Shown here piece by piece: positions 3,624-35,233 of a stretch of DNA of 64,000 bases. The notes under the pieces were generated by a model that was not told where the DNA came from, did not search any database, and worked only from the letters and a program-made list of their open reading frames with translations. The stretch spans positions 7,870-71,869 of the forward strand of contig JALSPC010000165.1 of NCBI GenBank assembly GCA_026986155.1. The letters run 5' to 3'. Source of the stretch: a bacterium (GTDB taxonomy: Bacteria > Desulfobacterota > S145-22). A program made the position numbers and the translations under genes. Numbering within the stretch: position 1 is the first letter of the stretch; every line of letters begins with the position of its first letter.

Positions 3624-4253
3624 ATGGCGAAATGGAAAATGAATTGCCCTTTTTCTGGAAAGGGTTGCAAGGAATGCTCAATATATCGGGGGAGACACTA
3701 TTTTCTTTGTTTTTCTAAGAGGTATAGAGGTGTCATTGGAGACCGGGTGGATAATTTCGAGGAGGTCTTGAAGAACACCTCCTTTTTCCCTTCGTCGAGA
3801 GACGAAAAAAGAGAGCCGAAAGTTTCCATGGAGAAGTGGGATAAATCCGTTTTCGGCACGGAGACGGTTTTAATTGTGGAAGACGACGATTTCTGGCAGG
3901 ATTTCCTGCGTTGGGCTCTTGACGACACGGGATACAATATTATCATTGCCAGTGGCAAGGAGGCTATTGATATCTTCGATAAGCGTTGCGATGAAATAGA
4001 CCTTGTCATCGCGGATGCGGCATCGTCGGGAAGAGGAATAATCCGTTACGCGAAGGAAAAGAAACCTTCCGTAAAGGCCATACTGACGACTGGAAACTAT
4101 TCCGCGGTTTCAGATTTTCACGATGAAAATCGGGTGGCCGCGGTTTTGCAAAAACCCTACAGCTCTTACACGCTGGTAAGGACGGTGCGAGATGTCTTGG
4201 ACGGGAAAGTTTTTTCTCGACAGGATCTTGAAACAGCAGCGGCAGTTTCGTAA
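3624..4253 (+). CDS. Orphan response-regulator receiver (REC) domain protein with an N-terminal four-cysteine motif and no output domain
   Basis: GGAGG 8 nt upstream of ATG 3624. N-terminus carries four cysteines spaced C-x6-C-x2-C-x10-C (CPFSGKGC KEC ... FLCF). Canonical receiver signatures: acidic EDDD, phospho-acceptor Asp in DLVIAD, conserved T in ILTTG, conserved K in LQKPY. Low GC compared with the flanks. Confidence 0.7.
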   Translation: MAKWKMNCPFSGKGCKECSIYRGRHYFLCFSKRYRGVIGDRVDNFEEVLKNTSFFPSSRDEKREPKVSMEKWDKSVFGTETVLIVEDDDFWQDFLRWALDDTGYNIIIASGKEAIDIFDKRCDEIDLVIADAASSGRGIIRYAKEKKPSVKAILTTGNYSAVSDFHDENRVAAVLQKPYSSYTLVRTVRDVLDGKVFSRQDLETAAAVS

Positions 4254-14900: not shown

Positions 14901-15079
14901 CCGTGACCACCTTTGGCGGCCTGCTCCCCATGATTACCGAGACCTCCGTGCAGGCGCGCGTCTTGATCCCCATGGCTATTTCCCTGGGGTTTGGCGTCCT
15001 TTTCGCCACGGGTATCACGTTGATTTTGATTCCCGCCCTCTATATGATGATTTCAAAGGACGAACAGGATGCGAGATAA
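11969..15079 (+). CDS. RND multidrug efflux transporter (AcrB/HAE1 family)
   Basis: 1036 aa with 12-TM RND architecture and two large periplasmic loops. ATGA overlap with the membrane fusion protein gene. Confidence 0.93.
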   Translation: MKRAIRWMVENPVSANLLLVFIIGFGILQALSIKKEVFPEYSLDMISVTVPYRGATPTDVEEAVCTRIEEEISGLDGIKRITSTAREGLGTVLVEVQKGYDAKKLRDDVKSAVDRITNFPKDIDQPVVTEVSRKREVLKVVLYGGVDEKDLKRSGERLRDDLSSLKGISLVTLDAVRPYEVSIEVPETMLEKYNLTIPRVAAIVAANCRDIPAGKIRQKGEEILVRTKGLKYTRKDFMGIPVIRDPAGGYVRLSDIANIVDGFEETDAATYFDGQRAVLLKVYRIGEQSALDIERAVKRQLPRLTQTLPDGIHWVITNNRARILRDRLDLLVRNGKYGLILVVLLLAMFLELRLALWVAMGIPVAFFGSFILLPYFGVSVNMISLFAFIICLGIVVDDAIIIGEHIFTKIQDGVPRKEAAVEGAYEMAAPVILTVLTTIAAFLPLLFVSGIMGKFMFAIPVVVISVLSISLVEAIFILPSHLAHLKERKDSHIVRFLPKYFDSWLEAFIEKVYQPVLKLALSWRVTALALGILMLCLMVGYVASGRIKIVFFPKVDADFVIAEVKLPEGASADQTLHAVRRLAKSADAVQAYYEKRYGKSIVKHLVLTVASQPYGSRHEVTRNAAPNIGEAAIELVAANDRKGINSNEVANVWRRLTGEVPGAESVTYNANLFSGGAAIDIQLSSDDFEQLKQASARLKRELARFNGVKDIHDNIEGGKQEINLKLTDRGKALGLNLIDLGLQVRGAFYGTEAVRIQRGKDDVRIMVRYPTNGRISLLDLEKMEIETAKGARIPLPEAATWTIRPGYSVITRSNRRRVVDVKADVVRSISNADEIIKELQGSFLERLKADYPGLNYSLEGEEKERRDSMRSMMYGFIVALFLIFVLLAIPFNSYIQPLVIMTAIPFGIIGAVLGHLLLGFNLSIVSFFGIVALAGVLVNDSLVLLDAINKRMASGAPNKIEAVIEASKSRFRPVILTSVTTFGGLLPMITETSVQARVLIPMAISLGFGVLFATGITLILIPALYMMISKDEQDAR

Positions 15080-15791
15080 GGATACGAGCGAAATCGATCC
15101 CCGGGGACTGGATGAACTCTGCGAGGCGCTGGGATACGCGTTCCGAGATCGTTCCCTCCTCATCCAGGCCCTGACACATAGCTCCTACCGCTACGAGACC
15201 ACGGGAAACATCCACGGAAGCAACGAGGTCTTGGAGTTCCTCGGGGATGCGGTGGTCAACCTGGTCACGGCGGCCATCTTGATAGCGTTGTTCCCGGAAA
15301 AAACGGAGGGGAGCCTTTCCAAGATGCGGGCGGAACTGGTCAACGAACGGTCCCTGGCGGACGTGGCAAAACAGTTCCGCCTGGAGGAAAGGCTCCTGGT
15401 GGGCAGGAGCGCGCGCGTTCAGAAAGAGGGGATTCCCCGCTCACTTCTGGCGGACGCCGTGGAGGCCTTGGTGGGTGCCGTCTTTCAGGACGGGGGATTC
15501 GAGGCCGCCTCCCGCATCGTGTCGGGTTTCATCCGCCCCCTCATAGACCTGGACGCGCTCGAAAAAGGGACGGATTACAAGACCCGACTCCAGGAATTCA
15601 CGCAAAAGACTTACAAGACCCTGCCCGAATATCGCCTGGTAGATACCTTTGGACCGGAGCACCAGAAAACGTTCGTGAGCTCCGTTTACGTCCAGGGGAA
15701 GAAACTGGGAACGGGAGAGGGGAGATCCATCAAGGCCTCCGAGCAGAAGGCGGCAAAGGTGGCCTTCGAGGCTTTAAGCGAAGCGGAATGA
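15069..15791 (+). CDS. rnc: Ribonuclease III
   Basis: RNase III signature ERLEFLGDAV and a C-terminal dsRBD. Start overlaps the RND gene stop by 11 nt. Confidence 0.9.
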   Translation: MRDKDTSEIDPRGLDELCEALGYAFRDRSLLIQALTHSSYRYETTGNIHGSNEVLEFLGDAVVNLVTAAILIALFPEKTEGSLSKMRAELVNERSLADVAKQFRLEERLLVGRSARVQKEGIPRSLLADAVEALVGAVFQDGGFEAASRIVSGFIRPLIDLDALEKGTDYKTRLQEFTQKTYKTLPEYRLVDTFGPEHQKTFVSSVYVQGKKLGTGEGRSIKASEQKAAKVAFEALSEAE

Positions 15792-15824
15792 TTCAAATAA
15801 ATACGAAGTTATATATTAATTTCC

Positions 15825-16844
15825 ATGTCTAACTATTGGATATTCCCAGTATTTATTCCAAATTACGGATGCCCCCAGCGGTGCGCGTTCTGCGACCAAA
15901 GTGCGGTGACGGGGGAATCTACACATTTTCCCGAAACGGCGGACCTGGAGGTGCTTTTTACCAAGGTGTGGTTTTCTGGAAAGCGGGCGAAGGATGCCGC
16001 CCTCGTCCGGCAGATCGCCTTCTACGGGGGGAACTTTACGGGGCTGCCCCGTGATACGCAGCGCCGCTACCTGGACTGGGCGGCAAAAAAGGTTGCGCAA
16101 GGTCTGGTCCATTCCATCCGTTTTTCCACGCGTCCCGACGCCCTGGGGAAAGATGAGATAGCGTTTTTGAAAGGGTATCCTGTTCATACCGTGGAGATCG
16201 GCGTCCAGTCCCTGAGCGACGCCGTGCTCGCGGGTGTAAGGCGGGGCCACACCGCCCTGGAGGCCAGGGAAGCGGTCTATAGGGTTCGGGACGCGGGGTG
16301 GGAAACGGGCGTGCAGTTGATGCCGGGGCTTCCGGGTGAGACCATGAATGGATTCCTCGATGGGGTGAGAAACATCGCCGACTGGAAGGTCCAATACGCG
16401 CGGCTCTACCCGACGGTGGTCTTGGAGGGAACCCGACTGGCCAGGGATTTCGAGGCGGGGACCTACGTGCCTTTAACCCTTAAGGAAGCCGTCACCTGGT
16501 GCGCCGCCGCCTGCCGAATCCTCGAGTCGGCCGGTATCGAGGTTATCCGCCTGGGGCTTCCCGCTTCACCGGGCCTCGAGTCGGCAGTCATGGCCGGTCC
16601 CTACCATCCCGCCTTCGGCTTTTTGGTTCAATCCTTTCGGTTCCATGAGGGAATTTGTGAAATGATTCGCGCCTTGCCCCGAGACGCAAGGAAGCTCCGA
16701 GTTCATCTTTCTTCCTCGGATCTATCGCGTTTCCTGGGACATCGCCGCGCGTCCTGGAAGGCCCTGTGCGAGACCTTCCCGGATAAAGAGATAGACTACG
16801 TGACCGACTGTGCGGTTGGGGAAGTTTCTATTGAAAGGGTTTAA
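15825..16844 (+). CDS. Radical SAM protein (ELP3/YhcC-like family)
   Basis: N-terminal CPQRCAFCDQ, a CxxxCxxC-type cluster motif. 339 aa. No obvious SD sequence. Confidence 0.75.
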   Translation: MSNYWIFPVFIPNYGCPQRCAFCDQSAVTGESTHFPETADLEVLFTKVWFSGKRAKDAALVRQIAFYGGNFTGLPRDTQRRYLDWAAKKVAQGLVHSIRFSTRPDALGKDEIAFLKGYPVHTVEIGVQSLSDAVLAGVRRGHTALEAREAVYRVRDAGWETGVQLMPGLPGETMNGFLDGVRNIADWKVQYARLYPTVVLEGTRLARDFEAGTYVPLTLKEAVTWCAAACRILESAGIEVIRLGLPASPGLESAVMAGPYHPAFGFLVQSFRFHEGICEMIRALPRDARKLRVHLSSSDLSRFLGHRRASWKALCETFPDKEIDYVTDCAVGEVSIERV

Positions 16845-23296: not shown

Positions 23297-24544
23297 GTGA
23301 GAGAGATCGTTATCATCGGCGGAGTTCGAACCCCAGTGGGAAGATACCTCGGCGCCCTGAGGGAGGTGGAGGCCTACGACCTGGCCGCCCTGGTTTTGAA
23401 CGAGGCGATCCGCCGCGCGGGAGTTGCCCCCGGCGCGGTGGACGAGGTCATCATGGGCCAGTCCTACCAGAGCGGGGAATATGTCAATATCGCGCGGATG
23501 GCCCTGCTCAAGGCGGGGTGGCCCGAGGAAATCCCAGGGGTGACCATCGACCGCCGGTGCTGCACGGGGCTGGACGTGGTCAAGATGGCCGCCGCCGTCA
23601 TCCAGGCGGAGCAGGCCGAGATCGTCGTGGCCGGCGGGGTGGAGTGCATGAGCCGCGCCGAGTTTTACCTTCCCGGGACCATCAAGTGGGGCGTGGGCGG
23701 AACGGGAGGGATGCCCAGGGGACACGGGGACCTATCCATCTGGGGCCTTCCTTTCTTTGACCGCATCCAGCGGGCACGCGTCATGTCACAGCCCGTAGAG
23801 CGGTTCGGCGTGCTTCCCTCCATGATGTCGTGGGCGGAGACCGCCGCGAGGGAGGAAGGTATTTCGAGGGAGGCGTGTGACCGGTGGGCGTTGGAAAGCC
23901 ACCGGAAGGCCTGCGCGGCGATGGAAGACGGGAAGTTCGACGAGGAAATCGTTCCGGTTCTTGTTCCGCATAAAAAGGGAGACCCGGAGATCTTCGGCAG
24001 GGACGAAACGCCCCGCCCCGATACCTCCCTTGAAAAGCTCGCGCGCCTGCGTCCCGTGCTGGGGGGGGTCTGCACGGCGGGGAACTCTTCCAGCGAGAAC
24101 GACGGGGCCGCGGCGGTGGTGGTGACGCACGCGGAGAAGGCCGCGGAGCTCGGCGTGGAACCCCTGGCCCATTTCCGGGCGTGCGCGGTGGCGGGAGCCG
24201 ACCCGAGAAAGGCCTACGAAACCGTTCCCCGCGCCGTTTCCAAGGCGCTGGCGATGACGGGCCTTTCCCTCGATGCCATCGAGCTCATCGAGATCCAGGA
24301 GGCCTTCGCAGCCCAGGTACTGGCAGACCTGAAGGGCATGGGGGTCGAACCCGGGGACTATCACAAGGTCAACGTGAATGGGTCGGGGATTTCGCTGGGG
24401 CATCCCATCGCCTGCACCGGGACCCGGGTGCTCGTAACCCTCCTGCACGAGATGCGCAGGCGCGGGACGCGGTTCGGCCTGGAGTGTATCTGCGGCGGCG
24501 GCGGACTGGGGATCGCCGCGATTCTCGAGCGAGAAACAACATGA
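23297..24544 (+). CDS. Thiolase family protein (acetyl-CoA C-acyltransferase-like)
   Basis: GTG start. Active-site Cys region DRRCCTGLD. C-terminal thiolase motif CICGGGGLG. Confidence 0.85.
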   Translation: MREIVIIGGVRTPVGRYLGALREVEAYDLAALVLNEAIRRAGVAPGAVDEVIMGQSYQSGEYVNIARMALLKAGWPEEIPGVTIDRRCCTGLDVVKMAAAVIQAEQAEIVVAGGVECMSRAEFYLPGTIKWGVGGTGGMPRGHGDLSIWGLPFFDRIQRARVMSQPVERFGVLPSMMSWAETAAREEGISREACDRWALESHRKACAAMEDGKFDEEIVPVLVPHKKGDPEIFGRDETPRPDTSLEKLARLRPVLGGVCTAGNSSSENDGAAAVVVTHAEKAAELGVEPLAHFRACAVAGADPRKAYETVPRAVSKALAMTGLSLDAIELIEIQEAFAAQVLADLKGMGVEPGDYHKVNVNGSGISLGHPIACTGTRVLVTLLHEMRRRGTRFGLECICGGGGLGIAAILERETT

Positions 24545-24564
24545 GATAATAAGGATAACTTACC

Positions 24565-25713
24565 TTGGATTTTGAACTTTCTGATGAACAAAAGGATATT
24601 ATCAGAGCCGCCAGGGAATTTGCCGAGGGGGAATTCCCCGCCTACGCGGACGAAGCGGACGCAACCGAGACGTTCCCGCGGCCCCTATGGAAAAAGGGGT
24701 GTGACCTGGGATTCGTCGGCGTGTTCTGGGACGAGGCCTACGGCGGTGCAGGGCTTGGATTTTTCGAGCATGCCCTCATTATGGAGGAATTCTGGCGCGT
24801 GGATCCCGGGTGCGGGCAGGCGGTACTCGGCGCGCTTTTTGGCTCCCAGATGATTCACCTCTTTGGCACGGAGGAACAGAAGCGCCGCTACCTTACGCCC
24901 CTCGCGAGGGGGGAGGCCATTATGGGTTCCGCCATCACCGAGCCTGACGCGGGAAGCGACGTGGCCTCCGGAACGACCCGCGCCGAATTGAAGGACGGCC
25001 GCTACGTCATCAACGGCAACAAGATGTTCATCTCCAATGGAAGCATCGCCGATTACATGACCGTCCTGTGCGTGACCCATCCCGAGGGGGAAAACCGGCA
25101 TCGCCGGCAGAGCGTCCTGATCGTGGAGACGGACCGGGAGGGATTTGAGGCGAACAAGTTGAAAGGAAAACTCGGCATCCGCGCCTCGGACACGGCGGAG
25201 GTCACCTTCAGCAACGTGGCTGTTCCCGCGGATCACATCGTCGGTGAACCGGGGCGGGGATTCTACCATTTCATGGAATTCTTCAACCATACCCGGATCC
25301 ATATCTGCGCCCAGGGGGTTGGGGTCGCCCAGGGAGCCCTGGAGCGGTCGATCCGCCACGTGAAAACGCGGCGGCAATTCGGGAGACCCCTGGGGAGTTT
25401 CCAGGCGATCCAGTTCAAGCTGGCGGAGATGGCGACACGGATAGAAGCGGCCCGCTCACTCTACTGGCGGGCGGGATGGAACATCGATCACGGCATCGTG
25501 GACCACCGACTGGTGGCCATGGCCAAGTGGTTTGCCGGGGAGGTCGGCGTTTACGTCACGAACGAGGCCCTGCAGATTCATGGGGGATACGGATATCTCA
25601 GGGAATACGGAATCGAACGCCTCTACCGGGACGCAAAGATCGTGGAGATCTACGAGGGCACTCGGGAGATCGAGAAGCTCATCGTGGCGAGAAACATCCT
25701 GGGAAGACTGTAA
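24565..25713 (+). CDS. Acyl-CoA dehydrogenase
   Basis: TTG start. 382 aa. Typical acyl-CoA dehydrogenase motifs (…TEPDAGSDVAS…, C-terminal YEGTREI…). Confidence 0.88.
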   Translation: MDFELSDEQKDIIRAAREFAEGEFPAYADEADATETFPRPLWKKGCDLGFVGVFWDEAYGGAGLGFFEHALIMEEFWRVDPGCGQAVLGALFGSQMIHLFGTEEQKRRYLTPLARGEAIMGSAITEPDAGSDVASGTTRAELKDGRYVINGNKMFISNGSIADYMTVLCVTHPEGENRHRRQSVLIVETDREGFEANKLKGKLGIRASDTAEVTFSNVAVPADHIVGEPGRGFYHFMEFFNHTRIHICAQGVGVAQGALERSIRHVKTRRQFGRPLGSFQAIQFKLAEMATRIEAARSLYWRAGWNIDHGIVDHRLVAMAKWFAGEVGVYVTNEALQIHGGYGYLREYGIERLYRDAKIVEIYEGTREIEKLIVARNILGRL

Positions 25714-25721
25714 CATCCGCG

Positions 25722-26714
25722 ATGATCACCCTGAAGAAACAGTCCAAGGTCATGAGCGCCCGGGAGGCGATCGCGGAATTCGTTCACGACGGGGATCTCA
25801 TCACCTTTGGCGGGTTTACCATCACGCGGAACCCCATGGGGTTGTGCCACGAAATCATCCGTCAGAATAAAAAGAACCTTCACGTAGCCGTCCATTCCCA
25901 GGGCCAGGCCTTTGATCTGCTCGTCGGGGCGGGGTGCGTGGCGGTCCTCGAGGTTGCCTACGGTGGCACGGCGCGTTTCTCTCCCGGCGGGGGGCCCTGC
26001 TTCAGGCGGGCGATCGAGAAGGGGCGGGTCCTATTCGAGGATTACACCAATTTCCAGATGACCCTTCGATTTCTGGCGGGGGCTATGGGGGTTCCCTTTC
26101 TGCCCCTGCGCGGATCGCTGGAGATCGACGTTGTAAAAAAATGGGGGATCCCTCCCGAGATCCGGCGGCGAAACCCGAAACTTACCAACGAAAAGATAGC
26201 CCTTGTGGAGAATCCTTTCAGTGAATCGGAAGAAAAAGAGACACTGGTTGCGGTTCCAGCTCTTCGTCCCGACGTGGCATTGATCCACGCCCAGCAGGCG
26301 GACCCGGAGGGGACGGTGAGATTCGGGGGCTTGACCTTTACCGACGTGGAGCAGGTAAAGGCCGCGGAAAGGGTCATCGTGAGCTGCGAGGAGCTGGTAG
26401 ACCCGGAAACGTTGCGGAAAGACCCCGTTCGGAACCAGGTTCCCTTCTTCCTGGTGAACGCCGTGGTTCCCATACCCTTTGGCGCGCATCCGACGGCCTG
26501 TTACGGCTACTACGACTACGACCCCGTCCACCTGAAGCGCTACGCGGAGGCGGCCAGGGAGGAAGCGTCGCTGAGGGAATACTTGAAGACCTACATCCAC
26601 GGGACGCGAGACCACGGGGAATATCTCGCCCTTATCGGCGACCAGGCCCTGGACAAGCTCCGGGCCGAACCGAGCGTGGGATACGCTCCCGGTCTCGACA
26701 GGAGCGGCCGATGA
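25722..26714 (+). CDS. CoA-transferase subunit A (glutaconate / 3-oxoacid CoA-transferase family)
   Basis: ATG at 25722, 9 nt after the acyl-CoA dehydrogenase stop. The longer ORF from 25476 overlaps the dehydrogenase and is rejected. Alpha-subunit-like sequence. Confidence 0.8.
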   Translation: MITLKKQSKVMSAREAIAEFVHDGDLITFGGFTITRNPMGLCHEIIRQNKKNLHVAVHSQGQAFDLLVGAGCVAVLEVAYGGTARFSPGGGPCFRRAIEKGRVLFEDYTNFQMTLRFLAGAMGVPFLPLRGSLEIDVVKKWGIPPEIRRRNPKLTNEKIALVENPFSESEEKETLVAVPALRPDVALIHAQQADPEGTVRFGGLTFTDVEQVKAAERVIVSCEELVDPETLRKDPVRNQVPFFLVNAVVPIPFGAHPTACYGYYDYDPVHLKRYAEAAREEASLREYLKTYIHGTRDHGEYLALIGDQALDKLRAEPSVGYAPGLDRSGR

Positions 26715-27466
26715 GGGAAGTCACGCCGAGGGAGCGGATGGTCCTGGCGGCGGCCCGCCGTATCCGCGACGGGGAGATCGTCTTTTGCGGCACGGGCATC
26801 TCCATGATCGCAGCCATGGCGGCCAAGCGGATTCACGCCCGAAGCAGTGTCATCTTTTTTGAGACGGGGGCCATCGACTCGCGTCTCGAGGAACTGCCGC
26901 TCTCTGTGGGTGATCCACGGGTCGTGACGGGGGCGAGCGTGGGAACGGGTCTGGTCGATTCCTTTGCCATCCTCCAGAATCCCCGCACGGCCTCGCGCGT
27001 GGTGGCCGTCCTGGGGGCGGCGCAGATCGACCCCTACGGGAATCTCAACTCCACCTGTATAGGGGATTACGCGCGTCCGAAGGTCCGTTTCCCTGGCAGC
27101 GGCGGGGCCAGCGACGCGGCGGTTTACGCGGCCAGGACCATCATCTTCATGCGCCTGGAGAAGCGGCGGTTCGTCGAGCGGCTGGACTACTTTTCGACAC
27201 CCGGCTGGAGGAACCCGGGCGGCGAGCCGTCACTGGCGCACGGCAGGCCGGAGGTGGTCATCACGGACGAGGGAACGTTCATGTTTAATGAAAGCTCACG
27301 CAGGATGTATCTTGCCTCCTACTTTCCAGGGAGTAGCCCGGAATCGATAGAGGATAAGGTGGGATTCGACATTGACACGGGTCGGGCCGTCGAGGAGCCT
27401 TCCCCTGCACACGAGTCCGTAGATCTTCTCCGGAAACATATTGACCCGCAGCATTTGATTCTGTAA
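26711..27466 (+). CDS. CoA-transferase subunit B
   Basis: ATGA overlap with subunit A. Beta-subunit-like (…IVFCGTGISMIAAMAAK…). Confidence 0.8.
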   Translation: MREVTPRERMVLAAARRIRDGEIVFCGTGISMIAAMAAKRIHARSSVIFFETGAIDSRLEELPLSVGDPRVVTGASVGTGLVDSFAILQNPRTASRVVAVLGAAQIDPYGNLNSTCIGDYARPKVRFPGSGGASDAAVYAARTIIFMRLEKRRFVERLDYFSTPGWRNPGGEPSLAHGRPEVVITDEGTFMFNESSRRMYLASYFPGSSPESIEDKVGFDIDTGRAVEEPSPAHESVDLLRKHIDPQHLIL

Positions 27467-27511
27467 AATGAAAATCAAAAGGGGTTAACATTTCACAAAG
27501 GAGGGAACATC

Positions 27512-28495
27512 ATGAAAAAGAAAGCGTTTTTGTTCAGTGTGTTGGCGGTTTGCTCTGTGGCATTGGTGGTCTCTGGAACGGCGTTTGCCGGTAAGTACAA
27601 CCGCAAGTTCCTCAAGATGGTATCGGGACCGGAGGGGGGCTCCTGGTATCCGCTGGGATCCGGCATCATGAAGCTGGTGGAGCAGGCCACGGGCATTTCC
27701 ACCTCCAACGGTCCTGGGGGCGGGGTCGGGAACTGCAAGGCCATTCAGCGGGGGAACGCGGATCTCGGATGGACCTATTCGCACACGGCCTACAATGCCT
27801 ACAACGGCAAGGGAAAGTTCAAGAAGCCCCATAAGAAACTGCGTTATCTCTGCTCCCTCTATCCGGGAATCTTCCAGGTGGCGGTGCCGAAAAAGAGTAA
27901 GATCTTTTCCTTCGCCGACCTGAAGGACAAGCGTATCGTTCCGGGTAAGGTGGGATTCACCGGGACGGCCATCGCGGAAGTGGTCCTCAAGGCCTACGGA
28001 ATTACCTTCGACAGCATCAAGAAGAACGGCGGGAAGGTGGACTTTGTGGGCTACGCCGACGCGGCGGCCCTGATGAAAGACGGGCACACGGACGCCTACA
28101 TGGCGGTGACCTCCTGCCCGCAGTCGACCATCATCGATCTCAACTTCCGCCCCGGCATTCGCTTCCTCGGCATCGACAAGGAACACATGAAGAAGGTGCT
28201 TGCACTTGAGCCCGGTCTCTTCGCCACTGTTATCCCGAAGACGGCCTACAAGGGCATGGACAAGGATGTTCCGACCGTAGGGACGGTGACCAGTATCGTG
28301 ATTTCTTCTGACGTGGAAGACGACGTAGCCTATGCCATCGTCAAGGCAATCTTCGAGCACCTGGACGAACTGGCCAAGATCAAAAAGAAGGCCATCTCCC
28401 AGGTCAGCCTGGAAAACGCCTTGCGCGGGTGCAAGATTCCTGTTCACCCGGGTGCCATGAAGTATTACACGGAAAAGGGCGTCAAGATAAAGTAA
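27512..28495 (+). CDS. TAXI-family TRAP transporter solute-binding protein
   Basis: AAGGAGGG RBS. Signal peptide. TAXI-type (Imm/TRAP-associated) periplasmic binding fold. Confidence 0.85.
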   Translation: MKKKAFLFSVLAVCSVALVVSGTAFAGKYNRKFLKMVSGPEGGSWYPLGSGIMKLVEQATGISTSNGPGGGVGNCKAIQRGNADLGWTYSHTAYNAYNGKGKFKKPHKKLRYLCSLYPGIFQVAVPKKSKIFSFADLKDKRIVPGKVGFTGTAIAEVVLKAYGITFDSIKKNGGKVDFVGYADAAALMKDGHTDAYMAVTSCPQSTIIDLNFRPGIRFLGIDKEHMKKVLALEPGLFATVIPKTAYKGMDKDVPTVGTVTSIVISSDVEDDVAYAIVKAIFEHLDELAKIKKKAISQVSLENALRGCKIPVHPGAMKYYTEKGVKIK

Positions 28496-28512
28496 GAAGC
28501 CTATCAATCGTG

Positions 28513-28546
28513 GGGCCCCTGGGTTTGTAATCCAAGGGCCCTTTTT
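28513..28546 (+). terminator. Candidate intrinsic terminator / attenuator between the TAXI binding protein and permease genes
   Basis: Imperfect GC stem (GGGCCCCTGG… / …CCAAGGGCCC) followed by TTTTT. Confidence 0.4.
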
Positions 28547-28573
28547 CCATCTTTCTTTAATAGGTTCACGGGA

Positions 28574-30541
28574 ATGCCCGTGGAATTTTTGCAGGAGGTG
28601 GCGTTGGCGGGAACGGTTGCCTACGAGGAAGAAAAGAATCCGACGATCTTACAGACCCTTTTCCGGGAGAAACCTCCCCATTACATTGTCGCGTTCTTCG
28701 CGGCCTCCCTGAGCATTTCCCTCTCCCTTTATCACCTGTTCATTTCTTACGCGGGGACGGTAGAGGCCCACGCCTTCCGATCGACGCACCTCGCCTTCGT
28801 GCTCGTCATCGCCTTCCTCATCAAGCCCCTGGGCAGGAAGACTTGGCGGGACCCCTACAAGTGGTATTCCTTCATCGATTTTATTCTCGTCGGGGCGGTC
28901 ATTGCCATCCAGGTTTACACCCTCTACGACATCGAGGCATTCATCTTTCGCCGGGGCGACCTGACGAACTGGGATATCTGGATGGGAACAGCCATGATCT
29001 TCATCCTCCTGGAGGCGACCAGAAGAACCGTCGGGTGGGCCATGGTGCTCATTTCCGGTTTTTTCCTCCTACACACCGCCTTTTCCAACCATTTCTTCTG
29101 GATCTTTTACGGCCCTCCCAACTCGTGGTTTACTATCGTCGATTATCTCTTCATGCGCGAGAACGGGATTTACGGCATCCCTCTCATGGTTATGGCGACC
29201 TATATCTTTCTCTTCATTCTCTTCGGGGCTATCCTGATGGAATCGGGGGCGGGAAAATTCTTCATCAACCTGGCCCTCGCGCTTACGGGGAGCCGGCGCG
29301 GCGGTCCCGCCAAGGCCTCTATCGTATCCAGCGCCTTGATGGCGACAGTCTCCGGAAGCGCCGTGGCCAACGTGGTCACGACGGGCACGTTTACCATCCC
29401 CCTCATGAAAAAGATAGGCTACCGCCCCCGGTTTGCCGCCGCCGTGGAGGCCTGTTCCTCCAGCGGAGGCCAGATTATGCCGCCGGTCATGGGAGCGGCT
29501 GCCTTCATCATCGCCGAGTTCCTCTCAATCCCCTACCTGAAGGTCTGCCTCGCGGCCTTCTTTCCCGCCATCCTCTACTTTTTCTCCATCTTTGTCATGG
29601 TGCATTTCGAGGCCGCGAAACACGATCTTGCCATGCTGGAAAAGGATGAGCTTCCCAACGCGAAGGAGGAGCTGAAACGGGGAGGACACCTATTCATCTC
29701 CCTCGCCGTCATCATCGGACTGCTGGTGGTGGGATACACGCCCATGTACGCGGCGTTCTGGGCCATCGTTTCCGTCCTGGTCTTGAGCTTTATCAAGAAG
29801 GAGACGCGCATGACGCCCCAGCGTCTTCTGTCGGCACTGGAGGACGGGGCGACCAAGGCCATTCCCGTGTCCATCGCGTGCGCCTGTGCCGGCATCATCA
29901 TCGGATCCGTCTTCGTTTCCGGCCTTGGGCTCAAGTTTACCAACCTCATCGTGACCATCGCGGCGGGAAGGCTCTGGATGGCCCTGTTTCTTACCATGAT
30001 TGCCTCCCTGATCCTGGGCATGGGCCTGACCACGACGGCGGTCTACATCACCGTGGCGGCCCTGGTGATTCCCGCTTTGGTCAAGATGGGCGTGGAGCCC
30101 ATCGCAGCGCACCTCTTCGCCTTCTATTTCGGCTTGGTGTCCGCCATCACTCCGCCGGTGGCTCTGGCGGCCTTCGCCGCGGCCGGAATCGCCGGATCCA
30201 ATCCCATGGAGACGGGGTTTTCCTCTTTTCGACTGGGAATTGCCAAGTATATCCTTCCCTTCGTTTTCGTTTACGGCCCGGGGCTGGTCTTCGTGGGCTC
30301 GTGGATCGACATCTTTCGGGCGATCGTGGCGACGACTCTGGGACTGTTCGCCCTGACTGTCGTCACGGAGGGTTGGCTCTATGGCCATGTTAACCTTGGG
30401 GCAAGGATCCTGATGTTCATTCCATCGGTTTTCCTCTTCCTGCCCCACATCCATTACAATTTGCTTGGAGTAGTTATCTTTGTGATTTTGGTTGTTTACT
30501 TGAAGAAAAAGAGCCGCCGGTCCGCGGCTTACACCACGTGA
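28574..30541 (+). CDS. TRAP transporter fused permease (TAXI-associated DctQM-like)
   Basis: 655 aa polytopic membrane protein. Fused small and large TRAP permease arrangement typical of TAXI systems. Confidence 0.85.
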   Translation: MPVEFLQEVALAGTVAYEEEKNPTILQTLFREKPPHYIVAFFAASLSISLSLYHLFISYAGTVEAHAFRSTHLAFVLVIAFLIKPLGRKTWRDPYKWYSFIDFILVGAVIAIQVYTLYDIEAFIFRRGDLTNWDIWMGTAMIFILLEATRRTVGWAMVLISGFFLLHTAFSNHFFWIFYGPPNSWFTIVDYLFMRENGIYGIPLMVMATYIFLFILFGAILMESGAGKFFINLALALTGSRRGGPAKASIVSSALMATVSGSAVANVVTTGTFTIPLMKKIGYRPRFAAAVEACSSSGGQIMPPVMGAAAFIIAEFLSIPYLKVCLAAFFPAILYFFSIFVMVHFEAAKHDLAMLEKDELPNAKEELKRGGHLFISLAVIIGLLVVGYTPMYAAFWAIVSVLVLSFIKKETRMTPQRLLSALEDGATKAIPVSIACACAGIIIGSVFVSGLGLKFTNLIVTIAAGRLWMALFLTMIASLILGMGLTTTAVYITVAALVIPALVKMGVEPIAAHLFAFYFGLVSAITPPVALAAFAAAGIAGSNPMETGFSSFRLGIAKYILPFVFVYGPGLVFVGSWIDIFRAIVATTLGLFALTVVTEGWLYGHVNLGARILMFIPSVFLFLPHIHYNLLGVVIFVILVVYLKKKSRRSAAYTT

Positions 30542-30553
30542 GGGGGGGAAGGT

Positions 30554-30742
30554 ATGAAGCGAAAAATCGTATCCTGGTTTCCATTGATTCTATGGGTTGT
30601 CCTGTTCTACTTCATCGCCGTTTACCACGTGGCGAGCATCCACTACAATCTCTTCCTGCTTTCACTGATTGCGTCTGCGTTTCTCATCGTGGGGATCTAC
30701 GTTTTGGGGTCGAAAAGACCGACAGGGAAGGACGGCGTTTAG
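30554..30742 (+). CDS. Small two-TM membrane protein (62 aa) downstream of the TRAP permease
   Basis: GGAAGG RBS 3 nt before ATG 30554. Two hydrophobic helices. Low certainty. Confidence 0.4.
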   Translation: MKRKIVSWFPLILWVVLFYFIAVYHVASIHYNLFLLSLIASAFLIVGIYVLGSKRPTGKDGV

Positions 30743-31167
30743 GCCACGCCAGCGCGGTGTTTTGGGTTCGTCAACTCTTCGATCAAAGATACCAGCTGTG
30801 TGATACGAAAGGGTTTTTTCAGGAAGTTCAGGGTAGGGGAAAGGTTGTTTTTCAGGGTGAGGGCCGCATCTTTCCCCTCGGCCTCCCGGCTCGCGTCGAA
30901 CCAGCCGCTGATAAAGAGGATGGGCATTGTAGGATCCAGGTCGTGGATTTCCTTTGCCATCTGAAAGCCGTTTTTGCGCGGCATGCGGATATCCGCGATG
31001 ACAAGATCGATTTCCTTTTCTTTCTTGAAAACTTCGATGCCTTCTTCGCCATCTCGGGCCTGAATGATTTCGTAGCCCTTGAATTCGAGGATTTCAACGA
31101 GCATGTTGCGAAAGAGGGGATCGTCGTCCACAACGAGGAGTCTTTTCGGCATGGTGCTTTTTTCCAT
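30739..31167 (-). CDS. Single-domain CheY-like response regulator
   Basis: …KRLLVVDDDPLF…DLVIADIRMP…FISGW…KP… receiver signatures. Start at 31167 (MEKST…) or 31152 (MPKRLL…). Lies immediately downstream of the MEMO1-AMMECR1 gene. Confidence 0.75.
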   Translation of the reverse strand: MEKSTMPKRLLVVDDDPLFRNMLVEILEFKGYEIIQARDGEEGIEVFKKEKEIDLVIADIRMPRKNGFQMAKEIHDLDPTMPILFISGWFDASREAEGKDAALTLKNNLSPTLNFLKKPFRITQLVSLIEELTNPKHRAGVA

Positions 31168-31168
31168 T

Positions 31169-32572
31169 TCAAAAGATATCCGCGGAGAAGACGTAGATCT
31201 TCGCGTCCGGGTCCTTATAGGCCATGGGATGGAGGCCCGCCTTGAGACAGGTCTGCTGCAGGAACTCTTCCCGGTTCCACCCGTATTCCGTGGCAACCTG
31301 GGGGAGAAGCAACCCTGAGTAGAGGCCTTTTTGGATGTAGAGGCCGTGGGTGCCTACCTGGATCTCAGACAGGTCCGCAATCTCCTTGAAAGGGGTGAGC
31401 GCGGAGATCTCTATCTCGACGGACGGCCATTCATCTTTGGTAAGCGGAGGGAATCTCGGGTCCTGGAAGGCGGCAGCCACGGCCATCTCCTGGACGGAGG
31501 CGGCCAGGGGTTTGACGGGCTGGATCAGACCGATGCAGCCCCGCAGGTACCCGTTTTTCGTGAGGGTAACGAAGGCGCCCCGGGTTTCCTCGAGGGTGGG
31601 TGTGAGCGGGGGAAGGGGCGGCATGGGTTTGCCTTCCAGCCTGCTCTCGATGGCTTCCCGCGCGATGGTGTGGAGGATCCGTTTCTCTTCATCCGTCAGA
31701 CCCAGATCAACCCCGACCTTTTTGCCTGATTTTCCATCTTCAGGTTTGAAAAAGACGGCGGACAGGTATCCTACCACGGCCTGGCGGTCTCCCGTAATGT
31801 CCCCGGAGTTCGCGTAGGCCAGAACCTTGGCGCTCGTGGCCCCCAAGGCGCGGGCCGTGAGCATGGCGGTGATCATGGGCCCGCCGCCGCAAGCCTCGGC
31901 CTTTCCCGAGTTGAGAACCTCGTGCAGCCCCGCCGGATCAAAACGATCCAGGGCTTCAGCCACCCGCGCGTCCAGCTTTCGTGCCTCCCCGTCGGGATGG
32001 TAGTGGGAGAGGTCGGAGCTGGCCACCACGAGGGCCTTTTTCCCCTCGAGAACCTGGGTAAGCGCCGCTTTCAATCGCTCACACGTGGCATAGTCCTGGG
32101 ATCCCATCACGATGGGCAGGAGCCTGAACTCGGCAAGCGCCCTTTGGAGGAAGGGCACCTGAACCTCGAGGGCGTGTTCCTGCTCGTGGACCTGGGGATG
32201 GAACTGGATAACAGGATCCTGCGCCATCAGGGCCTCGCAGGCCTCCCGGTCCACACGGGCCGTGCCGAGAGGCGTGAGGTAATCCCCCGCGGCGTAGACC
32301 GAGGCCCCCTTGAAATAGGCACGGTGGCTCGGCGAGATGACCACCACGAGGTCGTAACGGTTGCCTCGGACGGTTTTATAGCCGTAGGCGGCGATTTGCC
32401 CGGAATAGATGTATCCCGCGTGGGGACTGACGAGCGCGAGGATCTCTCCTTCAACGGGGGGAGGGTCGGCGTTTTCCAGAAAGGTGTCGATCTGCGCGGA
32501 GAGTTCATCGGGCGCACCGGGGTAGAACATCCCGGCCACGGCCGGCCGCCTGTCTCTCTTGATCTTTTCCAT
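31169..32572 (-). CDS. Fused MEMO1-like (AmmeMemoRadiSam protein B) and AMMECR1 (protein A) domain protein
   Basis: N-terminal half carries …HAGYIYSGQIAAYGY… (MEMO1). C-terminal half carries …RGCIGLIQP… (AMMECR1). GGGAGGTG RBS. Confidence 0.8.
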   Translation of the reverse strand: MEKIKRDRRPAVAGMFYPGAPDELSAQIDTFLENADPPPVEGEILALVSPHAGYIYSGQIAAYGYKTVRGNRYDLVVVISPSHRAYFKGASVYAAGDYLTPLGTARVDREACEALMAQDPVIQFHPQVHEQEHALEVQVPFLQRALAEFRLLPIVMGSQDYATCERLKAALTQVLEGKKALVVASSDLSHYHPDGEARKLDARVAEALDRFDPAGLHEVLNSGKAEACGGGPMITAMLTARALGATSAKVLAYANSGDITGDRQAVVGYLSAVFFKPEDGKSGKKVGVDLGLTDEEKRILHTIAREAIESRLEGKPMPPLPPLTPTLEETRGAFVTLTKNGYLRGCIGLIQPVKPLAASVQEMAVAAAFQDPRFPPLTKDEWPSVEIEISALTPFKEIADLSEIQVGTHGLYIQKGLYSGLLLPQVATEYGWNREEFLQQTCLKAGLHPMAYKDPDAKIYVFSADIF

Positions 32573-32629: not shown

Positions 32630-33079
32630 TCAGGCGCGGGGCGGGCTTTCCAAGAGGAGCGTGAAGGGCCCGTCGTTGACGAGGGTCACCTCCATCATCT
32701 CCCGGAAGACCCCTTCCTGGATGGGAACGCCCTTCAAGGCCAACCTGCTCACGAAGTCCCTGTAAAGGGCCTCGGCCCGCTCGGGGGATTCCGCTTCCGT
32801 GAATGAGGGGCGCCGTCCCTTGCGGCAGTCTCCGTAGAGGGTGAACTGGGACACCACGAGAATCTCGCCCCCCACGTCTCGGACGCTGAAATGGATATGC
32901 CCCCGGGTGTCCTCGAACATGCGAAGCTCCGGTATCTTCTTCGCCAAGGTCTCGGCGTCTGATTCCGTGTCGCCTCTGCCGATGCCGACAAAAACGAGCA
33001 GGCCCCTGCCGATGGCGGCGACGGTTCTTCCCGTCACCTTGACGCCTGCCTGAGACACCCTTTGGAGCACCGCTTTCAT
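32630..33079 (-). CDS. dtd: D-aminoacyl-tRNA deacylase
   Basis: MKAVLQRVS…SQFTLYGD… conserved Dtd motifs. 149 aa from Met at 33079. Confidence 0.85.
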
Positions 33080-33142: not shown

Positions 33143-35233
33143 CTATTCCTCTTCCGCCGCCTGCTTCTGCGCCACGATCTTGTCCTTGAGGTGGGCGGGG
33201 ACCTCCTCGTAGTGAGAGAACTCCATGGTGAAGTTCCCGCGCCCCCCCGTCATGGACCGCAGGTCCGGGGCGTATTTGAGGACCTCCGCCATGGGCACCA
33301 GGGCTTTGACAATCTGGTATTTCCCCTTGGAGTCCATGCCCAGGACCTTGCCCCTCCGGCTGTTGATGTCGCCCATGATATCCCCGAGGTTTTCTTCGGG
33401 TGTGATAATTTCCATCTTCATGATGGGCTCGAGCAGGATGGGACTGGCTTCCTGGACTCCCTTCTTGAAACACATGGACGCGGCGATCTTGAACGCCATC
33501 TCCGAGGAGTCGACCTCGTGGGACTTTCCGTCGTAGAAACGGACCTTGACGTCCACGACCGGATACCCCGCCACAACGCCGCTGGCCATGGCCTCCAGGA
33601 TTCCCTTTTCCACCGCCGGGACGAACCCGCGGGGAACGTTCATTCCCGTCAGGGCGTTTTCGAACTCGAAGCCCTTGCCGCGGGGCAGGGGAGAGATATC
33701 GAAATGGACCTCGGCGAACTGTCCATGCCCTCCGGTCTGCTTCTTGTGGCGGTAAATGACGCCCTTGGCAGTTTTCTTAATGGTTTCTTTATAAGGGACC
33801 TTGGGGATGCTCAAATCCACTTCCACCCCGAACTTCCGTTTCATCTTTTCCAGGGTTGTTTCGATGTGCAACTGTCCCATCCCCGTGATGAGGATTTCGC
33901 GGGTTTGCTCGTCACGGCCCAACTGGATGGTGAGATCCTCTTCCATCAGGCGCTGGAGGGACGAGGCGACCTTGTCTTCGTCTCCCCGAGACTTGGGCCT
34001 GAGGGCGAAGGTAATCATGGGGTTGGGGAGCCTGGCGGGCTCGTAGACAATGGGATCTCCCTCGTCGCAGAAGGTATCTCCCGTGGTGGTTTCCTTTAGT
34101 TTGGCCACGGCGATCAGCTCACCCACCGAGGCGGACCCGACCCCTTCTTGTTTCTTGCCGACGAGGCGGAAGATCTGTCCGATGCGCTCCTTCGCGTCCT
34201 TGGTGACATTGTAGAGGGTGGTATCGGCTTGGACCGTTCCGGAATAGACCCGAAAGATGGTAAGTCGTCCCGCGAAGGGATCACTGATGGTTTTGAAGAC
34301 GAATGCGGAAAAGGGGGCGTCCGGGCTCGGTTCACGGGTGATCTCTTCATCCGTTCCCGGTTTTTTGCCCTTGACGGGACCCCGGTCGATGGGCGAGGGG
34401 AGGGCGGCTGTTACCAGGTCGATGAGATGTGAAATCCCGATGTTTTTTGCGGCGGAACCGCAAAGGACGGGAACGAACTGACGTTCACACGTTCCTTTCT
34501 TGAGGCAGCCGAGGAGCTCCTCGTCGGTTAGTTCGTTGCCTTCCAGGTATTTCTCCATCAGTTCGTCGTCGGCTTCCACGAGGGCCTCCACCATCCGTTC
34601 CCGGAACGTGGCGACCGTGTCCGTAAACTCCTCGGGAACATCCTGTTTTTCGAACTTGCCGGACGCGTCATCAGAGAAGATATAGGCCTCCCGGGACAAA
34701 AGATCGACGAAGCCCTTGAAGTCGGATTCCTTCCCGATGGGGTAGACGAGGGGCACCATGCGCGTGCCCTTGAAGTTAGCCTCCAGGTCCTCGAGCGCGG
34801 ATTCAAAGTTCGATCGTTCCGCATCCATCCGGTTGATGAAGACGACCCTTGGAATTTCGTATTCGTCGGCGAAGTCCCAGACGGTGCTGGTCTGAACCTT
34901 GACGCCGTCGTTGGCCGAGACAACCACCACGGCCCCGTCCACGACCCGCATGCAGGCCTTGGTATCCCCGATGAAGTTGGCGTAACCGGGGGTGTCGATC
35001 CAGTAAACGAGGTGACTGTTCCATGGGAAATTGGCGATGGAGGCGAGAATGGAGCCCCCGCGTTTGATTTCTTCCGGCTCGAAGTCCATCAGGGAGGTTC
35101 CGTCATCCACTCTTCCAAGCCGGGTGTTGACGCCCGAAAGAAAGAGGGCGGCTTCCGTTATCGAGGTCTTTCCGTCTCCCCCGTGTCCAATGATCGCGAT
35201 GGTCCTGATGAATTCCGTGTCAACACTTTTCAT
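33143..35233 (-). CDS. Elongation factor G paralog (EF-G family translational GTPase)
   Basis: G-domain motifs (AIIGHGGDGKTS, DTPG, NRMD). 696 aa with EF-G domains II-V. Confidence 0.88.
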   Translation of the reverse strand: MKSVDTEFIRTIAIIGHGGDGKTSITEAALFLSGVNTRLGRVDDGTSLMDFEPEEIKRGGSILASIANFPWNSHLVYWIDTPGYANFIGDTKACMRVVDGAVVVVSANDGVKVQTSTVWDFADEYEIPRVVFINRMDAERSNFESALEDLEANFKGTRMVPLVYPIGKESDFKGFVDLLSREAYIFSDDASGKFEKQDVPEEFTDTVATFRERMVEALVEADDELMEKYLEGNELTDEELLGCLKKGTCERQFVPVLCGSAAKNIGISHLIDLVTAALPSPIDRGPVKGKKPGTDEEITREPSPDAPFSAFVFKTISDPFAGRLTIFRVYSGTVQADTTLYNVTKDAKERIGQIFRLVGKKQEGVGSASVGELIAVAKLKETTTGDTFCDEGDPIVYEPARLPNPMITFALRPKSRGDEDKVASSLQRLMEEDLTIQLGRDEQTREILITGMGQLHIETTLEKMKRKFGVEVDLSIPKVPYKETIKKTAKGVIYRHKKQTGGHGQFAEVHFDISPLPRGKGFEFENALTGMNVPRGFVPAVEKGILEAMASGVVAGYPVVDVKVRFYDGKSHEVDSSEMAFKIAASMCFKKGVQEASPILLEPIMKMEIITPEENLGDIMGDINSRRGKVLGMDSKGKYQIVKALVPMAEVLKYAPDLRSMTGGRGNFTMEFSHYEEVPAHLKDKIVAQKQAAEEE

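Follow-up and report, generated by a model that had tools for sequence, protein, structure and literature searches.

The minus-strand gene at 31169..32572 of the 64-kb stretch of DNA analysed here (the window) encodes a Memo–AMMECR1 fusion that is an ordinary member of a widespread and already annotated family, AmmeMemoRadiSam system protein B/A. Taking the evidence together, we consider it likely that this common fused protein sits in an inherited operon with an EF-G paralog and the D-aminoacyl-tRNA deacylase Dtd, that the receiver gene behind it is a recent, lineage-specific add-on rather than a conserved partner, and that its radical SAM (rSAM) partner is encoded elsewhere or absent.

The fusion and its operon

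The fusion is the third gene of the operon, 467 aa long, leaderless, with an ATG start and a TGA stop codon at 31171-31169. Profile searches upheld the sequence-only reading of the ORF as a MEMO1-type half joined to an AMMECR1 half. The N-terminal Memo domain (MEMO1-like, LigB superfamily; aa 10-273, 31754..32545, minus strand) scored 239.7 bits against PF01875 (Memo; cut-off 27) and 293.7 bits against TIGR04336 (AmmeMemoSam_B; cut-off 26), the latter over profile positions 1-270 of 270. The C-terminal AMMECR1 domain (aa 302-467, 31172..31669, minus strand) scored 198.7 bits against PF01871 (AMMECR1; cut-off 25) and 191.5 bits against TIGR04335 (AmmeMemoSam_A; cut-off 99). These matches are strong and far beyond chance level, and the two motifs on which the earlier assignment was based, SPHAGYIYSGQIAAYGY and RGCIGLIQP, are both present and lie within invariant blocks of the family alignment.

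Residues of the two putative active sites are also preserved. In human MEMO1 the active-site and metal-site residues are H49, H81, D189, H192, and C244. H51, H83, D187, and H190 of the fusion align with the MEMO1 motifs 'APHAGY', 'PSHH', and 'SSDFCH' and, together with C228, are invariant among 16 aligned homologs; C228 corresponds to C244 by motif only, as the pairwise alignment stops at aa 193. Compared with human MEMO1 (PDB 3BCZ, 7KQ8), the fusion gave an E-value of 2e-17 over aa 9-193, with the His/Asp positions kept. In the AMMECR1 half, R344-G-C346-I-G348 and D371-P-R373-F374 are invariant in the same 16-homolog alignment and represent the RGChG and DxR-aromatic motifs that, besides the profile cut-off, mark this domain (Balaji and Aravind, 2007; PMC2034487). 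Among the archaeal AMMECR1 homologs compared (PH0010, MM0484, and ST0229; PDB 1VAJ, 1ZQ7, and 1WSC), PH0010 matched aa 293-467 with an E-value of 1.8e-38, and the RGCxG cysteine is kept. MEMO1 and the archaeal AMMECR1 homologs are separate single-domain proteins, whereas both domains form one polypeptide in the window.

The inter-domain linker (aa 274-301, 31670..31753, minus strand) varies in sequence and length across the family alignment. Structure prediction, proposed earlier as a means of viewing the fusion interface, yielded an AlphaFold2 model with a mean pLDDT of 89.4 and a pTM of 0.61, in which both domains are confident but the linker is disordered (pLDDT <50 at aa 280-285). No fixed arrangement of Memo against AMMECR1 can therefore be claimed from the model. 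The protein would thus be a two-domain enzyme in which a flexible linker of ~28 residues joins a metal-binding, dioxygenase-like half of MEMO1 type to an AMMECR1 half with a cysteine cleft, the two presumably acting successively on one shared substrate. Since it has no signal peptide, it is presumably cytoplasmic.

A fusion of this kind is real, yet far from rare. All of the best 120 of 7,922 matches carry Memo plus AMMECR1 and bear JGI names of the type 'system protein B/system protein A', and the fused form is encoded by at least 598 species genomes from many phyla, including Thermodesulfobacteriota, Acidobacteriota, Zixibacteria, Ignavibacteria, Latescibacterota, Omnitrophota, and others. 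The statement that the system normally comprises three separate genes is hence inaccurate. The window protein shares its B/A architecture with thousands of database proteins and with the fusions described by Balaji and Aravind (2007; PMC2034487), and because that work had already reported Memo–AMMECR1 fusions and deduced cooperation of the two proteins from them, the present fusion does not newly confirm such cooperation. PMC2034487 was the only relevant paper in the literature searched, where we found no functional characterisation of AmmeMemoRadiSam, or of AMMECR1 together with radical SAM enzymes, MEMO1, or tRNA.

Two genes precede the fusion on the minus strand. The first encodes an EF-G paralog (33143..35233, 696 aa) with the full set of EF-G Pfam domains and above-cut-off scores for NF009381 (933 bits) and TIGR00484 (741 bits). 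The second encodes Dtd (32630..33079), likewise above cut-off for PF02580 (188 bits) and TIGR00256 (175 bits); its mechanically defined ORF begins at TTG 33106, while gene callers take the 149-aa form from ATG 33079. The order EF-G paralog, Dtd, fusion was found in 15 independent loci (the window, L004, L005, L006, L010, L012, L014, L015, L016, L018, L029, and L175-L178), whose fusions are 51-100% identical to the window protein. This synteny shows that the operon is inherited within one Thermodesulfobacteriota lineage.

Such persistent company could conceivably be functional, with the fusion modifying or repairing a component of translation, i.e., a tRNA, an rRNA, or a translation factor. The 15 syntenic loci, spanning fusion identities from 100% down to 51%, are consistent with this idea, as are the tRNA-modification genes (TruA, TadA-like, Trm5-like) upstream in L005 and L176. 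In addition, AMMECR1 belongs to the RAGNYA fold, which groups proteins that bind to nucleotides or nucleic acids, and a role in RNA base modification has been predicted for it (Balaji and Aravind, 2007; PMC2034487). However, the synteny is limited to one lineage and may be no more than inherited gene order, and in other phyla the fusion has quite different neighbors, either DUF362 and ferredoxin genes or Band7/NfeD genes with an epimerase and an aminotransferase. Moreover, the more distant EF-G/Dtd-linked fusions (L006, L012, L014-L016, and L029) have signal-peptide-like leaders and so would be extracytoplasmic, separated from EF-G and tRNA. A translational role thus appears improbable to us.

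The receiver gene behind the fusion

The fourth gene (30739..31167, minus strand) encodes a stand-alone receiver and lies, as the earlier reading held, directly behind the fusion on the same strand. Its in-frame ATGs at 31167 and 31152 give proteins of 142 or 137 aa, not the 140 aa first reported, and leave a gap of 1-16 nt; the ATG at 31152 fits the starts of orthologs better. The description as receiver-only was accurate: PF00072 matched with 77.1 bits (cut-off 30.2) and Pfam searches revealed no output domain. D9/D10, D54, a Ser, and K113 align with D12/D13, D57, T87, and K109 of CheY, so that the protein has the full residue set needed for phosphorylation, as in the single-domain regulators CheY, CpdR, and DivK/DVU0259. 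It differs from these types in a 9-12 aa insertion before beta5, an unusual feature shared by the receiver clade that lies near the alpha4-beta5 face and could be a specialised interaction surface, and in having no chemotaxis, cell-cycle, or kinase genes nearby. Its best NCBIfam similarities are to CpdR (68 bits) and the DVU0259 family (59.8 bits). As its scores stay far short of all curated equivalog cut-offs, it is not a member of any named subfamily.

Neither a sigma-70-like promoter nor a terminator-like site was predicted between fusion and receiver, and the spacing is tight in all three receiver-bearing lineages (16, 18, and 17-35 nt). This makes co-expression with the fusion likely, and the 1-16 nt spacing suggests that the receiver is probably co-transcribed by read-through. 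A lineage-specific regulatory interaction with the fusion is possible on these grounds.

The distribution of the gene was less favorable to a partnership. The survey that the sequence-only reading had called for, i.e., how often such fusions are followed by receiver genes, found the receiver in three of eight sampled close-clade lineages whose fusions are 69-100% identical (the window, L004/L094, and L010). The remaining five lack it, namely L178 (fusion identity 82%), L175 (78%), L176 (75%), L005 (74%), and L177 (69%); in L178, only a 77-nt gap follows the fusion and tblastn detected no trace of the receiver. In all 80 other, more distant species loci, no receiver lies within 500 nt of the fusion, and in one of these an unrelated REC-HD_5 protein is encoded 528 nt downstream. 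A search of 5.8 billion proteins recovered only two ortholog clusters above 45% identity, those of L004/L094 (61%) and L010 (54%). The next-best homologs are ≤45% identical, and the one examined in context (P0124, 41%) is surrounded by unrelated genes (PatA-type regulator, GGDEF, and CsgG). The corresponding identities in L004/L094 and L010 are 90% and 88% for EF-G, 84% and 76% for the fusion, and 75% and 73% for Dtd, and the receiver, at 61% and 54%, is thus the fastest-evolving and least conserved gene of the operon.

A dedicated regulator, phosphorylated by a kinase and binding the Memo–AMMECR1 enzyme to switch it, would accord with the 1-16 nt gap on the same strand with neither promoter nor terminator predicted in it, the complete phospho-acceptor set, the clade-specific insertion before beta5, and the linkage retained in three lineages. 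Against this, the linkage is missing from five of eight close lineages, including one with 82% fusion identity, and from the 80 other species loci, and within the operon the receiver shows the lowest conservation. Furthermore, no histidine kinase (HisKA/HATPase_c) was found, either in the Pfam lists for genes called up to 10 kb to each side or in a scan of the other large ORFs, and the presence of the receiver is nested within that of a neighboring TRAP block. We therefore regard a dedicated regulator as very unlikely. The proposal that the reaction is under two-component control had named two ways in which it might fail, namely profile HMMs that do not support both domains, or a receiver that has its own promoter and is unlinked in relatives. 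Both domains are upheld and no such promoter is predicted; nevertheless, the proposal falls by its own test because the receiver is unlinked in relatives.

The neighboring block (TRAP/TAXI–CoA-transferase–acyl-CoA dehydrogenase–thiolase) is inserted between the fusion and SurA/Mfd and runs convergent to the receiver. Among the eight lineages, the receiver occurs in three of the four with the block and in none of the four without it, and there is a 4-nt overlap between its stop codon and the end of a 62-aa membrane ORF, the last of the TRAP operon. It might accordingly be asked whether the receiver functionally belongs to this block and stands behind the fusion by position only. However, it lies on the opposite strand and close up to the fusion, the block occurs in L178 with no receiver, and eight lineages are a small sample, all of which leaves this a distinctly unlikely explanation. 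The receiver would rather be a recent, lineage-specific fourth gene at the junction with the inserted block.

Radical SAM partners and signal leaders

As defined by TIGR04335 (A), TIGR04336 (B), and TIGR04337 (the rSAM, typically adjacent), the AmmeMemoRadiSam system is represented in the window by A and B, whose cut-offs are exceeded and whose catalytic motifs are intact. An HMM built from 31 confirmed rSAM enzymes gave no match at E ≤ 1e-3 in a six-frame translation of the 64 kb, TIGR04337 was not found, and no DUF362 gene is present there. Across all six reading frames, the only ORF of at least 100 aa that contains a CX3CX2C motif lies at 15825..16844. It adjoins RNase III, its best matches are to ELP3/MnmL-type models (below their cut-offs), and it matched neither TIGR04337 nor the related HMM; it is ruled out as the missing partner, in agreement with its earlier assignment to a different family. 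The window fusion thus differs from the rSAM-linked systems in lacking TIGR04337 within 64 kb, a leader, and DUF362/ferredoxin neighbors, and in lying in an EF-G–Dtd operon followed by a receiver.

The earlier remark that the fusion occurs without its radical SAM partner holds for the window, but not as an oddity, as 33 of 66 evaluable fusion loci have no rSAM within 3 kb. Conversely, 16 of 49 evaluable rSAM loci have no Memo or AMMECR1 gene within 3 kb. Ten of these 16 orphans were checked further; none has Memo or AMMECR1 within 5-10 kb of flank, and all ten pass TIGR04337 (358-468 bits; cut-off 220). Split rSAM and fusion loci are hence normal. The partner of the window fusion may be encoded elsewhere, which would be the normal arrangement, or may be absent, as in eukaryotes.

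An unplanned result bears on this choice. All 33 rSAM-adjacent fusions have a signal-peptide-like leader, and none of the 24 leaderless fusions has an adjacent rSAM (leader/rSAM-adjacency counts 33/0/9/24; Fisher p about 1e-10 on plain counts uncorrected for phylogeny, with leaders called by a hydrophobicity heuristic). Neighbors were clustered using HMM-anchored domain boundaries, replacing an ORF-based set that contained spurious antisense ORFs in high-GC loci. In this sample, signal leader and rSAM adjacency are linked in an all-or-none manner, a pattern (including the twin-arginine motif noted below) for which we found no description in the literature searched. The majority of partner rSAMs of leader-bearing fusions carry a twin-arginine motif, and a DUF362 Fe-S protein is often encoded ahead of the rSAM. 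DUF362 and ferredoxin genes recur as neighbors. Leaderless fusions also occur in closed genomes (CP070766.1 and CP070717.1). In the window clade, the leader kept by its EF-G/Dtd-linked relatives has been lost.

Is the lack of an rSAM then a matter of real biology and not of gene location? A leaderless, cytoplasmic fusion might work without any rSAM, like eukaryotic MEMO1 and AMMECR1. The separation of 0/24 leaderless from 33/33 leader-bearing fusions beside an rSAM, the shedding of the leader in the window clade, and the lack of both rSAM partner and DUF362 in 64 kb all point in this direction. However, the fusion clears the cut-offs of the rSAM-linked subfamily models TIGR04335 and TIGR04336 by a wide margin, leaderless orphan TIGR04337 rSAMs (L165, L167, L168, and L171-L174) could be unlinked partners, and the leader-bearing relatives of the same synteny L006, L012, L014, and L016 also have no adjacent rSAM. 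Independence from an rSAM is thus a possibility to be taken seriously, though we lean against it.

Less probable still, and offered only tentatively, is a wider scheme of two kinds of fusion. The first would be extracytoplasmic or membrane-directed, with a Sec- or lipoprotein-type leader, and the only kind to stand beside an rSAM (usually twin-arginine, often following DUF362). The second would be leaderless and cytoplasmic, never clustered with an rSAM, and might work without one as in eukaryotes. Under this scheme, the window lineage would be a recent convert to the second kind, in which a few genomes gained a tuning receiver.

AMMECR1 is located in a human disease region. Since, to our knowledge, no biochemical reaction is known for AmmeMemoRadiSam, MEMO1, the AMMECR1 homologs, or the fusion, a true regulatory partner would have offered a useful way into the system. 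The survey showed that the receiver does not offer one and, since its association with the fusion is not conserved, provides no general information on how the system is controlled. The link between leader and rSAM, together with the DUF362/ferredoxin neighbors, suggests instead an Fe-S-dependent process that is apparently directed to the envelope, and these leader and neighbor patterns indicate that leaderless forms without an adjacent rSAM may be natural variants worth comparing.

Domain composition and distribution of the fusion

The 467-aa minus-strand ORF (31169..32572, ATG start) had been read from sequence as a Memo half joined to an AMMECR1 half, and profile HMMs confirmed both. Pfam placed Memo (PF01875, 239.7 bits) at aa 10-273 in the N-terminal half and AMMECR1 (PF01871, 198.7 bits) at aa 302-467 in the C-terminal half, and NCBIfam assigned the halves, above cut-offs, to AmmeMemoRadiSam system proteins B (TIGR04336, 293.7 bits; cut-off 26) and A (TIGR04335, 191.5 bits; cut-off 99), respectively. 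H51, H83, D187 and H190 of the Memo half aligned with the MEMO1 motifs APHAGY, PSHH and SSDFCH and, together with C228, were invariant among the 16 homologs compared, as were the RGCIG and DPRF motifs of the AMMECR1 half, the putative active site defined by Balaji and Aravind (PMC2034487). Structure prediction had been named as a check on the fusion interface. Since the AlphaFold2 model had a pLDDT of 89.4 overall, dropping below 50 at aa 280-285, and a pTM of just 0.61, it indicates two well-folded domains, confidently predicted, that are joined by a flexible linker, and does not support a fixed interface.

The sequence-only reading also held that the AmmeMemoRadiSam genes are normally three separate ones, which is inaccurate for the phyla considered here. 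Balaji and Aravind (2007; PMC2034487) reported that AMMECR1 persistently neighbours Memo, which they called a "ring-opening dioxygenase", and a radical SAM (rSAM) enzyme, already described fusions of AMMECR1 with Memo, and inferred a single pathway for all three, possibly RNA base modification. Searching 5.8 billion proteins at E<=1e-10 returned at least 7,922 matches to the fusion; all of the best 120 carried both Pfam domains, and many of these bore the JGI label [quoted passage not shown]. Full-length relatives were found in at least 598 genomes when one genome per GTDB species was scanned, the best 80 belonging to Thermodesulfobacteriota, Acidobacteriota, Zixibacteria, Ignavibacteria, Latescibacterota, Omnitrophota, Nitrospiraceae, KSB1 and others. 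Considering these numbers and the 2007 report, the fusion is neither novel nor rare, and that of the window is a real but ordinary member of a well-populated, already annotated family.

The operon and the receiver gene

Upstream (5') of the fusion lie Dtd (32630..33079, minus; TIGR00256, 175 bits) and then an EF-G paralog (33143..35233, minus; NF009381, 933 bits), with intergenic gaps of 57 and 63 nt in this stretch. Downstream, the fusion's stop codon (31171-31169) is abutted, as had been noted, by a same-strand ORF with in-frame ATGs at 31167 and 31152, which encodes a receiver-only response regulator (PF00072, 77.1 bits) of 142 aa (30739-31167, minus) or 137 aa (30739-31152). Prediction gave no sigma-70-like promoter for the minus strand between 30400 and 35600 and two terminator-like hairpins on that strand: one is within the operon, in the Dtd gene, and is no more than expected by chance, and the other lies 3' of the receiver. 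The unit thus comprises EF-G paralog, Dtd, fusion and receiver, in that order, and from their spacing we infer co-transcription.

The order EF-G paralog–Dtd–fusion recurred in 15 independent loci (the window, L004, L005, L006, L010, L012, L014, L015, L016, L018, L029 and L175-L178), all from Thermodesulfobacteriota/"Deltaproteobacteria" MAGs or metagenome contigs, with fusion identity to the window protein down to 51%. This synteny agrees loosely with the 2007 RNA-modification idea and may be inherited gene order; signal-peptide-like leaders on the fusions of its more distant members speak against direct cooperation with translation factors, which are cytoplasmic. At L005 and L176, TruA, TadA-like and Trm5-like tRNA-modification genes lay farther 5'.

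The receiver looks functional in its own right, judging from the alignment of D9/D10, D54, a Ser at the T87 position and K113 with CheY. The three orthologous receivers, that of the window included, share an insertion of 9-12 aa between alpha4 and beta5 (aa ~95-108, e.g., LTLKNNLSPTLN), which is missing from CheY and the next-closest receiver homologs. No histidine kinase gene is encoded within +-10 kb. Elsewhere in the window, a 209-aa ORF (3624-4253, plus) with a Cys-rich N-terminus (CPFSGKGCKEC) was weakly similar to this receiver (phmmer E 4e-7) and matched no Pfam family at E<=1e-5.

Linkage of the receiver to the fusion had been proposed as a clue to two-component control of the AmmeMemoRadiSam reaction. 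Among eight close lineages (identities are to the window fusion), a receiver followed the fusion in three: the window, L004/L094 (84%) and L010 (76%). It was missing at L178 (82%), where the next gene was 77 nt away and a tblastn search for remnants was empty, and at L175 (78%), L176 (75%), L005 (74%) and L177 (69%). These last four have convergent SurA-SurA-Mfd genes directly 3' of the fusion, except that at L175 two small ORFs without annotation intervene; this order is evidently the older one. In the window, the fusion operon is separated from SurA/Mfd by a TRAP/TAXI transporter–CoA-transferase–acyl-CoA dehydrogenase–thiolase block (23297-30742; DctM, 28574-30541; TAXI, 27512-28495; CoA-transferase, 25476-27466; thiolase, 23297-24544) that is present in only some close relatives, and the receiver occurred in three of the four lineages with the block and in none of the four without it. 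A conserved hydrophobic ORF of 60-65 aa (62 aa in the window, 30554-30742) closes the block, its end overlapping the receiver stop codon by 4 nt.

Across 80 species-level loci, phmmer detected no receiver within 500 nt of the fusion. The sole near case, in a Latescibacterota MAG, lay 528 nt 3' of an rSAM–fusion pair (L055:11959-13422, plus) and encodes 488 aa that combine receiver domains with an HD_5 (HD-GYP-like) domain. The receiver is also the operon's least conserved gene, its orthologs being 61% and 54% identical versus 90% and 88% for EF-G, 84% and 76% for the fusion, and 75% and 73% for Dtd. Beyond the orthologs, database relatives reached at best 45% identity, and P0124 (41%), the one homolog whose context was checked, had unrelated neighbours. 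The receiver is missing from five of eight close lineages and, within 500 nt of the fusion, from all 80 species loci; it is thus largely unlinked in relatives, which had been named beforehand as a ground for refutation, and is not a conserved partner of the fusion. Its linkage is narrow, patchy and lineage-specific and does not supply the proposed clue; a private, lineage-specific regulatory role is possible but unsupported.

Radical SAM and putative DUF362 partners

Searching the window with an HMM trained on 31 verified AmmeMemoRadiSam rSAM enzymes gave no match. The CX3CX2C motif occurred in a single ORF across six frames, a 339-aa gene (15825..16844, plus) 34 nt 3' of RNase III (the pair spans 15069-16844). 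Its best matches were to the tRNA-modification models ELP3 (82 bits) and MnmL/YtqA (70 bits), both far below cut-offs, and its protein fell within no curated NCBIfam family. The earlier statement that the window lacks the AmmeMemoRadiSam rSAM, its sole rSAM being of another kind, thus held. In a fusion-centred genome sample, 33 loci had a same-strand TIGR04337 gene that was the fusion's immediate neighbour on either side or lay no more than ~2 kb away (e.g., L017, 370 bits, and L069, 387 bits; cut-off 220), and another 33 fusion loci, all flanked by 2.5 kb or more at either end, had no adjacent rSAM. A reverse metagenome scan with the rSAM profile found Memo/AMMECR1 within 3 kb in 33 loci and 16 well-flanked orphans; the 10 orphans examined all passed the TIGR04337 cut-off (358-468 bits) and had no Memo/AMMECR1 in the available 5-10 kb flank. 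Since orphan rSAM genes and rSAM-less fusion loci are both frequent, it is normal for the rSAM to be unlinked, and finding none in 64 kb is unremarkable.

Nine leaderless fusions of Ignavibacteria/Zixibacteria (L032, L039, L044, L048, L051, L059, L071, L080 and L082) had another conserved neighbourhood and no rSAM gene nearby; depending on the locus, this included NfeD–Band7 upstream and, usually downstream, a trio of NAD-epimerase, an unknown 140-aa protein and a class-V aminotransferase.

In 32 of 89 evaluable loci (e.g., L069:7431-8555, L074:7521-8588, L099:6078-6998, L146:8922-9947), several orphan rSAM loci among them, the gene immediately 5' of the rSAM, in the same orientation, encodes DUF362 (+4Fe-4S). 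Acidobacterial clusters ran polyferredoxin (e.g., L061:5212-6876)–DUF362–rSAM–fusion–DUF362. DUF362 is likely a fourth component; the 64-kb window contains no such gene.

Leader sequences and rSAM adjacency

In both samples, a twin-arginine motif ([STD]RRxFL) with a hydrophobic stretch behind it was present at the start of most TIGR04337 proteins (L017:11491-12654, MKNSISRREFLKQCG...; L069:8703-9854, MARELDRRSFLQGALASGAALG...; L152:10007-11125), and many fusions start with a Sec- or lipoprotein-type leader (L072:8799-10271, MKKIFTLLIALLLCSCARS; L091:9884-11404, MRSKISWLVVPLIAILAIAAVRCARA). A leader was scored when 15 or more residues preceded the Memo domain and some 10-residue window among them averaged >=2.0 in Kyte-Doolittle hydropathy. 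By this heuristic, 33 of 66 evaluable loci combined a leader with an adjacent rSAM, nine had a leader and no adjacent rSAM, none had an adjacent rSAM without a leader, and 24 had neither (Fisher p ~1e-10, uncorrected for phylogeny). That an rSAM system should appear export-directed is unexpected. We found no description of the leader/twin-arginine and DUF362 patterns, which are heuristic-based, in the searchable literature. In two Omnitrophota MAGs, a leaderless rSAM (starting MKKVRCLLCP; L072:7626-8600, L075:8727-9698) adjoins a fusion with a lipoprotein-type leader (L072:8799-10271, L075:9926-11407); conceivably, the rSAM acts on the fusion product prior to export.

The window fusion starts MEKIKRDRRPAVAGMFYP and is leaderless, since its stop-to-stop frame adds only 19 upstream codons, without a start codon. 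Its close relatives are leaderless as well and EF-G/Dtd-linked relatives at 51-56% identity carry leaders; the leader was apparently lost in the window's clade.

The recurrent fusion and its neighbourhood suggest that the Memo and AMMECR1 domains work one after the other on a single substrate; the Memo half would contribute metal-dependent redox chemistry, and a reactive cysteine would come from the AMMECR1 half. In canonical clusters, a radical step would come from the PflA-like rSAM, probably fed by DUF362/ferredoxin. The window has a leaderless fusion whose Memo and AMMECR1 signature residues are intact; it belongs to an EF-G–Dtd operon, has a complete receiver 3' of it and is accompanied in the window by neither the partner rSAM gene nor a DUF362 gene; in this lineage the rSAM may have been dispensed with or may act from another locus, and the receiver would be co-expressed through read-through, most probably with no conserved role in the reaction. 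The remaining value of the locus lies in the leader/rSAM dichotomy among its relatives, the window fusion being one of the leaderless forms with no rSAM next to it.
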